From Candidatus Jordarchaeales archaeon (GTDB taxonomy: Archaea; Asgardarchaeota; Jordiarchaeia; Jordiarchaeales; Freyrarchaeaceae): a stretch of 10,230 bases of DNA. Positions 5,356-10,047 of the stretch are shown piece after piece. Every line of letters starts with the position of its first letter. The stretch's first letter is position 1. Position numbers and translations under genes: made by a program. The notes under the pieces are model-generated. The model did not search any database, had not been told where the DNA came from, and saw only the letters and a list, made by a program, of their open reading frames with translations. Location: positions 5,473 to 15,702 of the forward strand of contig JAWCFL010000020.1 in NCBI GenBank assembly GCA_038858525.1, in the 5' to 3' direction.

Positions 5356-6543
5356 TTGGAGCAGACTTCCAGGAGAATAGTGCTCGCCTTATGCTCGGCT
5401 TCAGGCTTCATTGACTATTTGGGGTACGGCGTCATAGTCCCCCTACTCCCGCTTTACGCTACGGCGCTTGGCGCCGATGAAGTTGACTTAACGCTGATAT
5501 TCTCATCATACGCGGTAGTTCATCTTGCGTCAGCGTTGCCCTTCGGCTTCCTCTCTGACAAGTATGGGAGGCGTCCCTTCATAATCTTAGGCATATTGCT
5601 TCTATCAGCATCTTTCGCCGTTTTCCCTCTAGCTGGAAGCATACCTGCCCTCATATTTCTTAGAGCCATTCAAGGGCTAGCAGCATCTTTGATGTGGTCA
5701 TCGCTTAGTGCTCTAGTAGCGGACATATACACGGGTGAGCGGGGAGAAAAAATAGGGTTGTTTAACGCGTTCACAGCTAGCGGCTCAATAGTGGGGCCGG
5801 CGTTCGGCGGCGCTCTTGCCGAAATAAGTTTTTCACTTCCTTTCTTGACTGTTGCAGGCGTTTCCCTCACCTTAGGATGCTACATGTTGTTTAAGCTTAA
5901 GACACCCGTAGTTAGAGTGCCATCAACTCCTCCGCTTTCAGCCATCAGGAACGTTTTATCCGTTCGAAACATTCTCTTTCTCTTTGTAGCTGAAGCAGCC
6001 ATCTCGTCTCTTTATGGAGCGATGGAGCCCCTTCTCCCATCCTACCTTAGCGGACGTATAGCTATGTCCACAGCTGAGATTGGGTTAGCGATAAGCATCT
6101 CCTCCCTTTCATTCACTGTTCTTCAGCCATTCATAGGCCGTCTCTCTGATAGGTATGGAAGGCGCACGTTTATCATTCCTGGCTTCATCGTCCTAGCGGC
6201 CTCAACAGCCCTAATACCATTGGCGAGCAACGCCATCCAAGTTTACCTTGTCCTATGCCTTACTGGGGCCGCGTCAGCAGTCGCCTTCACCCCGATAACC
6301 CCCCTAATTTTAGACTCCCTAGACGAGGCTTCCCTCAAGAACTATGGCTTAACATCAAGCCTGTTTGGCATATCTTGGAGTAGCGGCTACGCCGCCGCCC
6401 CCATTACGGGTGGTCTAGTGGCAGCCTACCTGGGAATTTCAAGGCTCTTCTTTCTTCAGGCAATGATACTGGCGGTTGTTGGACTGCTGTCTATAAGAAT
6501 ACTTCGTGAACCAAAACAACGTTACGATAACGTTTTCTCATAA
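5356..6543 (+). CDS. Major facilitator superfamily transporter (DHA1/TetA-like efflux type), substrate unknown
   Basis: About 12 hydrophobic segments. MFS motif A occurs twice (GFLSDKYGRRP, GRLSDRYGRRT), RAIQG in TM4 and motif C-like GSIVGPAFGG. TTG start with GGAGG at 5342-5346. Confidence 0.92.
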   Translation: MEQTSRRIVLALCSASGFIDYLGYGVIVPLLPLYATALGADEVDLTLIFSSYAVVHLASALPFGFLSDKYGRRPFIILGILLLSASFAVFPLAGSIPALIFLRAIQGLAASLMWSSLSALVADIYTGERGEKIGLFNAFTASGSIVGPAFGGALAEISFSLPFLTVAGVSLTLGCYMLFKLKTPVVRVPSTPPLSAIRNVLSVRNILFLFVAEAAISSLYGAMEPLLPSYLSGRIAMSTAEIGLAISISSLSFTVLQPFIGRLSDRYGRRTFIIPGFIVLAASTALIPLASNAIQVYLVLCLTGAASAVAFTPITPLILDSLDEASLKNYGLTSSLFGISWSSGYAAAPITGGLVAAYLGISRLFFLQAMILAVVGLLSIRILREPKQRYDNVFS

Positions 6544-6644
6544 AATTATTTAGAATACAGCATTATTATTCTTATTTTTATATTCGAACTTTGAGAATTT
6601 TGCATTAATCATATTTTTCGATGAAAGATTTTTTATTTCAAAAA

Positions 6645-6659
6645 GAAAACCTTATAAAT
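6645..6659 (+). promoter_or_regulatory. BRE + TATA promoter of the wHTH-CARF gene
   Basis: GAAAAC followed by CTTATAAAT in an AT-rich intergenic region. SD GGGAGGT at 6692-6698 precedes TTG 6705. Confidence 0.65.
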
Positions 6660-6704
6660 CCTTTAACTTAACTATATTATTGAAACTATGCGGGAGGTTA
6701 ACAA

Positions 6705-7298
6705 TTGCTGATACTGGACAAAGAAGCAAGACACGGTATTAGAGGAAAAATACTACGTCTGCTCCTAGAAATGCGTGAAGCATCATTTCGGGACCTCCTC
6801 GTTAGGCTTCCCGTCACCACGCTAGACTTCCACCTAAGAGTCCTAAGGAAAGAACAAATAGTTGATGTAACAGATAGAGGTTACAGAGTGAATCCAGAGA
6901 AAGTACAGTATCTCAGAAATAAATTCAACATTAAAACGGATTTGATTCTGATCGCTGGAGTGGAAAACGAAAAAGACGTTGAATCCGTGGAAAAAGAGAC
7001 AGCTAGAGCGAATATAACCCCGAAGGAGTTCTTCTACGTAGCTGACTCAAGGGTTGCTGGTGCCCTAAGAGGCGCTGTCGAGAAGCGGGGCGGAGCCATG
7101 CTGGTGTTAAATTCGGAGAATCCGGAGAAAGCATTCAAGGAGCTCTCCAGGCTCGTAGAGGAAAAAATTTACAATGTGGAGCCGGTCATAAACCTCTCAT
7201 ATGCTAGTCGCCTCATGGCGATAGCCCTAATGAAATTAGGCGAAAGGTATGGCTTAAGGCGCTTCCTTACGTGTGATGGAGAAATCCTCTGGCTCTAA
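6705..7298 (+). CDS. Putative transcriptional regulator: N-terminal ArsR-like winged helix plus C-terminal CARF (Csa3-like Rossmann) domain
   Basis: Residues 7-63 are wHTH-like (HGIRGKILRLL...TTLDFHLRVLRKEQIV...GYRV). Residues 78-197 show alternating beta/alpha elements, with EPVINLSYASRLMAIAL matching the CARF motif [DN]L[ST]xGx[RK]. The wHTH call is about 0.8 and the CARF call about 0.65. Confidence 0.7.
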   Translation: MLILDKEARHGIRGKILRLLLEMREASFRDLLVRLPVTTLDFHLRVLRKEQIVDVTDRGYRVNPEKVQYLRNKFNIKTDLILIAGVENEKDVESVEKETARANITPKEFFYVADSRVAGALRGAVEKRGGAMLVLNSENPEKAFKELSRLVEEKIYNVEPVINLSYASRLMAIALMKLGERYGLRRFLTCDGEILWL

Positions 7299-9687: not shown

Positions 9688-10047
9688 TCAGGTTTTTCCT
9701 TCCTTATCTAATATTTCGAGTATCCTGTCTAGTTCGTACATTTCGCTGAGCGCATTTATCCTATTTTTAAGTTTTGCTGCCGCTATCATCGTGTGATGCT
9801 CCTCTTTCATTATAACGATGACTCCTGTTCTCTCTGTGGTTTTTATAAGAAAGCTTTTCTTGTCATGTACCATGCTTCCTATGTTCATCATTGATAAAGG
9901 GAACTTTCTGTAGTACCCTAAAACGTCTCCTTTAATTTCCCCCTTAAATGCCCACACCTTGAAGTTTGTATCTATGACGTATATTGCTTCAACTGCAAGT
10001 TTACCTATGTTTGACTCGATAATCTTTACTATGTTTTCAGTGTTCAA
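9688..10047 (-). CDS. Hypothetical protein, possibly Roadblock/longin/profilin-like fold
   Basis: 119 aa, TTG start with GAGGAGTGG at 10063-10055, globular composition. Predicted pattern is helix, two strands (AIYVID, KVWAFKG), short helix, three strands, long helix. The CDS is likely real (about 0.8) but the fold is uncertain (about 0.4). Confidence 0.7.
   Translation of the reverse strand: MNTENIVKIIESNIGKLAVEAIYVIDTNFKVWAFKGEIKGDVLGYYRKFPLSMMNIGSMVHDKKSFLIKTTERTGVIVIMKEEHHTMIAAAKLKNRINALSEMYELDRILEILDKEGKT

Follow-up and report, generated by a model that had tools for sequence, protein, structure and literature searches.

Csa3 and Csa3a are transcription factors made up of a CARF domain followed by a winged helix-turn-helix (wHTH) domain, and they bind cyclic tetra-adenylate (cA4) (PMC8699464, PMC8844856). 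In Csa3a the phosphates of cA4 are bound by the Gly backbone NH and the Arg of the motif L-x2-G-h-R, with the Arg side chains of both subunits crossing the dimer axis (PMC8699464). Card1, Can2, Cdn1 and VC1899 (Crf4, i.e. CARF4; PDB 6wxw, 8bao, 7bdv, 8z4i, 1xmx) are nucleases activated by cA4 or cyclic tri-adenylate (cA3). A gene carrying a wHTH and a CARF domain was analyzed in a 10,230-nucleotide stretch of DNA from a Candidatus Jordarchaeales archaeon (GenBank assembly GCA_038858525.1, contig JAWCFL010000020.1, forward-strand positions 5,473 to 15,702), which is referred to as the window. The gene, a 197-aa open reading frame (ORF) with a TTG start at 6705-7298 (+), encodes a protein designated P0001, which is a divergent member of the catalogued family CARF_m5 and not an undescribed system.

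P0001 resembles Csa3 and Csa3a (PDB 2wte, 6w11, 6wxq) in joining a CARF domain to a wHTH without an enzymatic effector and, according to its model, in forming a homodimer with a two-fold pocket; the loop form L-x2-(G/A)-h-R, with the Arg across the axis, is common to both. The two differ in domain order, the CARF domain being N-terminal and a MarR-like wHTH C-terminal in Csa3, whereas P0001 has an ArsR-like wHTH (residues 1-75) followed by CARF (79-197). Csa3 is encoded beside type I-A cas genes, while the neighbourhoods of P0001 and its orthologs consist of housekeeping genes. By family profile the CARF domain of P0001 is nearer in sequence to those of Card1 and Can2 than to that of Csa3. The best fold matches were to Card1, Can2, Cdn1 and VC1899 (Z 15.2-12.6), but P0001 has no PD-(D/E)xK nuclease domain, and its CARF domain is C-terminal with the wHTH upstream, whereas Card1 and Can2 have an N-terminal CARF and a C-terminal nuclease. 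The ArsR/SmtB metalloregulators (CzrA, SmtB, CadC, HlyU, BigR) share the fold of residues 1-75; they dimerise through helices α1 and α5, whereas P0001 is predicted to dimerise through its CARF domain. With CARF_m5, an archaeal family, P0001 shares domain order, approximate size and a full-length profile match. It differs in its score (72.8 bits against 117-200), in its loops (NLSYASR for DLTGGTK and AGVEN for GGLG), and in its own long-branched, one-family clade in a housekeeping context.

Fold and family assignment

The structure of P0001 was modelled using AlphaFold2 with an alignment of nine close homologs (predicted local distance difference test score, pLDDT, 90.9; predicted template modelling score 0.85). 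An ArsR/SmtB-type wHTH was recognised at residues 1-75 (6705..6929, +) by profiles, the model and a fold search, and a six-strand Rossmann-like CARF domain at residues 79-197 (6939..7295, +) by the model, Foldseek and the fold search. The CARF domain consists of β1 (79-85), β2 (108-114), β3 (131-135), α3 (140-154), β4 (158-163), α4 (169-182), β5 (185-190) and β6 (193-196). A preliminary description of the window, made from sequence, had proposed an N-terminal ArsR-like wHTH followed by CARF; both domains were borne out, and all of the strand and helix elements it had read lie in the model where it had placed them.

Profile matches to the wHTH were sub-threshold (Pfam HTH_5, E 1.2e-3, 19.1 bits against a gathering cut-off of 22; NCBIfam HTH_metalloreg, E 2.8e-4, 20.6 bits against a curated cut-off of 55). 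In the fold search it matched CzrA at Z 10.7 and the ArsR/SmtB set of CzrA, SmtB, CadC, HlyU and BigR at Z 10.7-9.6, and the family profile reached ArsR-family structures at 2e-7. Residues 77-197 matched VC1899 (1xmx) at Z 15.2 (rmsd 2.5, 119 aligned), followed by Can2 (14.7 for 8bao, and 13.9), Card1 (13.2), Can1 (13.2), Csa3 (12.8), Cdn1 (12.6) and Cam1 (12.5); the matches from Can2 onwards, with Csm6 included, span Z 14.7 to 12.1, and the top of the list held CARF proteins only. The comparison with CARF structures proposed earlier was likewise positive in Foldseek, where all 25 matches at E <= 1e-3 were CARF proteins (Cam1 at 8.4e-6), with a probability of 1.0 for Csm6, Can2, Card1 and Csa3. 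The sequence of P0001 alone matched no solved structure and no CARF family in Pfam or NCBIfam, and Pfam Csa3_N (PF22662) gave no match at E <= 1. Only with profiles or the fold model does the CARF domain become visible. Strand β6 closes the protein at residue 197, and no nuclease or other effector domain is present. Look-alikes found using a protein language model, which serve as leads only, were Csa3 and HFX_2341 clusters (0.77-0.78) and Thor/Bathy clusters (0.87-0.89).

Residues 16-197 of P0001 aligned with positions 13-195 of the 195-position PADLOC profile PDLC01987 ('CARF_m5--CARF') at E 9e-21 and 72.8 bits, and the same match was recovered in a whole-genome profile scan. CARF_m5 relatives of P0001 scored 117-200 bits. 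The architecture of an N-terminal wHTH and a C-terminal CARF domain in about 200-250 aa without effector is shared by P0001 and 21 aligned relatives; an exhaustive profile search of 1.84 billion representative proteins had yielded roughly 20 more distant proteins, 205-250 aa in length, that have this order. Among the 22 family members Pfam assigned CARF_Card1 to 11, Cas_APE2256 to three and HFX_2341_N to two; Csa3_N (PF22662) matched one of the 22 (E 0.0072). PADLOC Csa3 profile matches on P0001 (E about 1e-3) were confined to the wHTH part. Of the solved CARF domains, a family CARF profile reached only Card1 (2.4e-5), Cdn1 (1.7e-4) and Can2 (1.9e-3). The assignment of P0001 to CARF_m5, as a divergent wHTH-then-CARF regulator of the one-component type, is made with high confidence, and the preliminary description had also read it as a one-component regulator.

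The order of domains had been noted earlier as the reverse of that in Csa3. This is correct, but because the CARF_m5 profile is matched over its full length, the order belongs to a minor CARF family already catalogued and is not new. The further proposal of an undescribed signalling system was not upheld, the family being catalogued and carried by 141 of the 400 genomes from the phylum. The name CARF_m5 is reportedly in the style of the 2020 CARF classification of Makarova et al. A literature search whose coverage stopped short of that classification returned no paper mentioning CARF_m5, no experimental study and no reported ligand, so that the family proved common and catalogued but no ligand came with it. 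An N-terminal wHTH is not mentioned in the 2025 CRISPR classification.

Two other proteins, P0015 (968 aa) and P0029 (793 aa), each gave 8-9 repeated short CARF-profile matches (profile positions 116-190 and 92-128, respectively) and may be repeat proteins of Rossmann-like units.

Predicted dimer

P0001 was predicted to form the canonical two-fold CARF homodimer. Each of the three runs gave an interface score ipSAE of 0.69, while the best of three controls scored 0.00; contact agreement was at least 94% and partner pLDDT at least 89. Of the proteins solved as same-chain pairs, 20 of 30 attain the mark applied to ipSAE, compared with 1 of 23 among those solved as single chains. Since CARF dimers have already been solved, this pass may partly reflect likeness to known dimers. 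The predicted interface is formed by helix α4, the β4-α4 and β3-α3 loops and the β5-β6 hairpin (residues 138-141, 164, 167-169, 172-180 and 188-197). In the model, R169 of one copy contacts A167, S168 and R169 of its partner across the axis, as Arg98 and Gly96 make cross-axis contacts in Csa3a (PMC8699464). A dimer model had been called for in the preliminary description, which had anticipated such a two-fold pocket.

The same interface bears on the possibility that the CARF domain no longer binds a ligand and serves only to dimerise an otherwise ordinary ArsR-type repressor or activator. Many conserved CARF residues lie in it (138-141, 164, 167-169, 172-180), and their conservation could for that reason be explained by dimerisation alone.

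Pocket loops and selection

Most CARF_m5 members carry a Card1-like loop, DLTGGTK (DLTGGTKP after β4). The loops taken here as canonical (LIGGLG after β1 and D-[LV]-T-G-G-T-K after β4) are the observed family consensus and not a published definition. Both are absent from P0001, which reads LIAGVEN and NLSYASR; L, S (in place of T) and R (in place of K) are all that it retains. The β4-α4 loop, N163-L-S-Y-A-S-R169 (7191..7211, +), corresponds to canonical DLTGGTK and to NITGGTK of Card1; a CARF-only profile aligned with Card1 residue for residue, placing 'ividlTGGTKlvsIa' on IIVNITGGTKIMSLA (E 2.4e-5). The motif NLSYASR, placed earlier at nucleotides 7191-7211, was found there as residues 163-169, and the earlier reading that its Gly positions were replaced and its Arg kept holds. 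Within the clade of P0001, L164 and S165 do not vary; position 169 is occupied by R or K, in agreement with the Csa3 motif L-x2-G-h-R, position 167 by A, S or T, and position 166 by Y, H, S, T or G. The most basal orthologs read DLSG[ST]SK. The floor of the pocket has thus been partly retained, with progressive loss of the Gly pair.

The β1-α1 loop, residues 83-91 (IAGVENEKD; 6951..6977, +), corresponds to motif 1 of Csa3 (as defined in PMC8699464) and to LIGGLG of canonical CARF_m5. Six of nine close homologs retain G85, which is replaced by Ala in the 56% identity group; E89 and D91 are invariant. As had been pointed out from sequence, residues 83-91 hold no Ser or Thr. In ring nucleases of the Crn1 type the catalytic Ser sits in this loop. 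It is very improbable that the CARF domain of P0001 degrades cyclic oligoadenylate (cOA) as Crn1 or Sis0811 does, with the wHTH as an accessory. Foldseek did match the ring nucleases Sso2081 and Sis0811 (CARF plus wHTH) at E 5e-4 to 3e-3, but these matches were weaker than those to Card1, Can2 and Cam1, and loci of the sister clade already encode dedicated ring nucleases, Csx3 and B116-like.

The changed loops would also fit a sensor whose pocket was remodelled for another ligand (GG to x-[AST], GGLG to AGVEN) after the gene left a CRISPR locus. Such a sensor might bind, for instance, a metabolite or a nucleotide that is linear or carries a 2',3'-cyclic phosphate, and housekeeping genes would be regulated independently of CRISPR. 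E89, D91, S137 and E141, in or beside the pocket loops, are invariant in the clade yet non-canonical, and the CARF domain of RtcR senses RNA ligands other than cOA. The variation at loop position 166 within the clade speaks against a newly optimised site, and neither a candidate ligand nor a synthase was identified. We consider this explanation unlikely on balance, although a substantial competitor.

Selection was compared between the two domains. In the closest pairs the ratio of nonsynonymous to synonymous substitution (dN/dS) was close to 0.05 in the wHTH and to 0.14-0.16 in CARF; identity across the clade was 76-95% for the wHTH and 44-73% for CARF, and CARF dN was 3-5 times that of the wHTH. 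Judged from these sequence comparisons, both domains are under purifying selection, and the DNA-binding part is much more constrained. For a ligand-blind dimerisation module speak the faster CARF dN, the loss of the canonical GG and the variable position next to it. A dN/dS of 0.15 nevertheless indicates clear purifying selection over the whole CARF domain. All members of the clade also retain S165 and a basic residue at 169, positions that bind phosphate in other CARF domains, and DLSG[ST]SK persists in the most basal orthologs. Loss of ligand binding seems rather unlikely.

Phylogeny and genomic distribution

Across the 400 genomes of the phylum, CARF_m5 turned up in 141, representing 49 of 85 genera. 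Maximum-likelihood analysis was applied to 62 members, and a quick tree was compared with a careful tree. Clade B (30 entries, support 99/94) is widespread, tracks organismal families and includes P0030, a paralog from the same genome as the window; clade A has 17 entries and clade C has 4. P0001 falls outside clade B in a clade of its own, W (4 entries, support 100/100), with a stem of 1.45 substitutions per site. Clade W is paired with clade A in the quick tree (SH-aLRT 85).

The Pfam annotation of 71 ORFs from 11 clade-A loci comprised 17 RAMPs, 3 Csm1_B, 3 Cas10 palm2, 3 Cas4, 2 Cas1, 2 Cas6, 1 Cas2, 1 Csx1 HEPN, 1 Csx3, 2 STIV-B116-like and 2 Cas_NE0113. The clade-C gene lies about 1.3 kb from a Cas10-match ORF in one sister genome (G114, contig C4) and at the end of a Cas10 operon in another (G115, contig C49). 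Because clade W stands outside clade B and among the CRISPR-embedded clades A and C, P0001 appears to have branched from the CRISPR-linked part of the family, relocating to a housekeeping site before it diverged rapidly.

True orthologs of P0001 (E 1e-107 to 1e-112) were confined to one Jordarchaeales family, f1, in 5 genomes of 2 genera. P0001 is a lineage-specific, fast-evolved paralog of that family. In the homolog neighbourhood survey, which had been suggested beforehand, orthologs as distant as 56% protein identity always lay in the order DNA topoisomerase VI (topoVI), ApbE-like, threonyl-tRNA synthetase (ThrRS), major facilitator superfamily (MFS) transporter, gene, PurN. The ThrRS-MFS(x3)...PurN neighbourhood also occurs in the sister family f2, where it contains no CARF_m5 gene, which implies either insertion in the f1 ancestor or loss in f2.

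The adjacent PurN had earlier led to the suggestion of a purine metabolite as ligand. Since f2 has the neighbourhood without the gene, and the topoVI-to-PurN block is simply syntenic in f1, adjacency to PurN looks like a landing site and not a functional link; sensing of a purine metabolite was rejected as unsupported. PurN is equally uninformative for the remodelled sensor, which does gain from the stable housekeeping synteny and the long stem branch. A narrower form of that explanation, in which one Jordarchaeales family captured a type III-derived CARF regulator and re-tuned it to a non-cOA ligand as a CRISPR-independent one-component housekeeping switch, is likewise judged unlikely. If it were true, and together with a widespread Cas10-independent CARF_m5 clade, Asgard archaea would use CARF domains as general small-molecule sensors.

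Several further CARF_m5 genes were recorded. P0030 (G000:C35:1720-2448 (-) = L051:1720-2448; 242 aa, 160 bits, clade B) has the loop IIDVTDGTR and is flanked by two small ORFs on one side and a 1104-aa ORF on the other, with nothing cas-like apparent among its unannotated neighbours. The third paralog, of clade C, occurs in the sister genomes at G114:C4:16433-16948 (L055:7886-8554) and G115:C49:16316-16831 (L056:13275-13946). A copy in the window genome may lie past a contig end, as the matching contig C45 starts about 1.4 kb before cas10. ORFs of 140-155 aa matching only the CARF half (CARF_m5 profile 73-195) were seen at L063:8445-8873 and L064:7334-7765 and in G144:C158, G145:C92, G278:C223 and G278:C296. 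Two of them adjoin full-length wHTH-CARF genes in CRISPR-linked loci, and they look like wHTH-less partners or decoys. The MFS gene beside ThrRS is single in f1, against three tandem paralogs in f2 (L095:9787-13977, G116; L096:2005-5987, G118).

Messenger sources and proposed function

The window genome (2.09 Mb, 92.7% complete) was searched for sources of a nucleotide messenger, as had been proposed. Three Cas10-type proteins, each with GGDD, were found on contigs C50, C45 and C49 and one Csx1 on contig C19, but no SMODS CD-NTase and no DAC cyclic di-AMP cyclase were found in this 92.7%-complete assembly. Cas10 was present in 4 of the 5 genomes carrying an ortholog, the fifth being 73% complete; its presence in every adequately complete one of them tells against a remodelled, non-cOA sensor. 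Over the phylum, a Cas10 match was obtained in only 26 of the 141 CARF_m5-positive genomes using a single model (Cmr2) at E <= 1e-8, many of the genomes being incomplete. The Cas10-negative ones include the single-contig genomes G002 and G004. With 115 of 141 lacking detectable Cas10, at least part of the family works without it, mostly clade B as judged from representatives, and ligands not made by Cas10 become plausible, in keeping with a remodelled pocket.

The explanation that we favour, tentatively, is a cOA-gated regulator acting away from CRISPR loci. The three GGDD Cas10 enzymes would make cOA, most likely of the cA4 class, during type III interference. The cOA would bind in the two-fold pocket floored by the β4-α4 loops (S165, A167, R169) and would switch DNA binding, and the P0001 dimer would bind an AT-rich palindrome at its own promoter as well as further targets. 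P0001 would then be a Csa3-like output of CRISPR signalling with the opposite domain order, encoded away from CRISPR loci. Four observations favour this explanation. Among relatives whose context is known, the nearest are linked to type III systems; P0001 retains the dimer geometry together with the Ser and Arg/Lys positions that bind phosphate; purifying selection acts on its CARF domain; and no cyclic-nucleotide synthase other than Cas10 is recognisable in the genome.

Several observations weigh against it. The Gly-Gly of the canonical β4-α4 loop is lost and position 166 is variable; the β1-α1 loop has changed from GGLG to AGVEN; the clade stem is long (1.45 substitutions per site). The gene occupies a fixed housekeeping site with no cas gene nearby, and a separate CRISPR-adjacent CARF_m5 paralog, of clade C, already exists in the sister genomes. 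The 115 genomes without detectable Cas10 count on the same side, as does the careful tree, in which W, A and C form a polytomy and the W-A pairing is only moderately supported. No binding data for any CARF_m5 protein were found in the literature search. The lost Gly pair, long branch, housekeeping site, CRISPR-adjacent paralog and partial independence of Cas10 in the family keep both a changed ligand and a ligand-blind scaffold well alive. That P0001 is a ligand-gated regulator of some kind is fairly probable; that its ligand is cOA is put forward with less than even confidence.

The gene on its own is a modest find. CARF_m5 is common in Asgard archaea, often without detectable Cas10, and no experimental study of it was found. 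The window genome offers a natural comparison set, namely P0030 with its canonical loop, the divergent P0001, three GGDD Cas10 proteins and Csx1, to which the sister genomes add the CRISPR-adjacent paralog. The comparison bears on whether CARF domains outside CRISPR loci still sense cyclic oligoadenylates or other signals.

Promoter and gene neighbourhood

A Shine-Dalgarno sequence, GGAGG (6693-6697, +), lies 7 nt 5' of the TTG start, and this arrangement of GGAGG-N7-TTG was kept in all of the orthologs compared (eight ortholog loci). The promoter consists of a transcription factor B recognition element (BRE) and TATA box, AAAAGAAAACCTTATAAAT, at 6641-6659 (+; TATA 6652-6659), as read in the window and in the ortholog alignment. 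The block hardly changes among 8 ortholog upstream regions, even where protein identity falls to 56%, while the intergenic flanks vary; the gene had been credited with its own BRE/TATA promoter, and this conservation agrees.

Immediately 5' of the BRE is an imperfect AT-rich palindrome, ATGAAAGATTTTTTAT (6621..6636, no strand assigned), weakly suggested as an operator. It was the sole match in the window at 3 or fewer mismatches, and 16 of 200 shuffles gave at least 2 matches; no copy was found in the PurN-ThiI intergenic region when the window was searched. The block is kept in orthologs, as the perfect 16-bp palindrome ATGAAAAATTTTTCAT in L016 and L022. Since the window copy has 2 mismatches and the half-site spacing differs in the most distant orthologs (the 56% identity group), it is a candidate operator only. 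In the genome, the full palindrome had 11 matches at 2 or fewer mismatches, without pattern. The form TGAAAA-N1-3-TTTTCA (1 or fewer mismatches) had 65 matches, against about 19 in composition-preserving block shuffles, and no cas promoter was flagged among the 65. A regulon search by this site was dropped as too noisy, the window's own site having 2 mismatches.

The gene order in the window is topoVI B, topoVI A, ApbE-like, ThrRS, MFS transporter, the wHTH-CARF gene, PurN and ThiI, PurN being convergent to the wHTH-CARF gene with a 4 nt overlap. Pfam annotation of the window ORFs gave no cas genes, and the stretch is of housekeeping character, both as first described; close homologs are labelled Candidatus Freyarchaeota or Jordarchaeales. 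Base composition gave no signal of horizontal origin (GC 0.458 for the gene, 0.469 for the window). A 431-nt contig from metatranscriptome run X15 lay on 6732-7162 with 8 differences (about 98% identical) and is a weak hint of expression, DNA carry-over being possible; the stretches without coverage carry no information.

At 9688-10047 (-) there is a 119-aa ORF of low GC (0.369) with no family match. It is probably a real small gene, since the ortholog loci L015 and L016 retain an equally long ORF in the corresponding location (11152-11511). The topoVI-B ORF (3-1121, +) has, at residues of about 220-372, a low-complexity tail past the transducer domain that is first acidic (EEEFEEGE...) and then Lys/Ser-rich (...KKKESEAKE).

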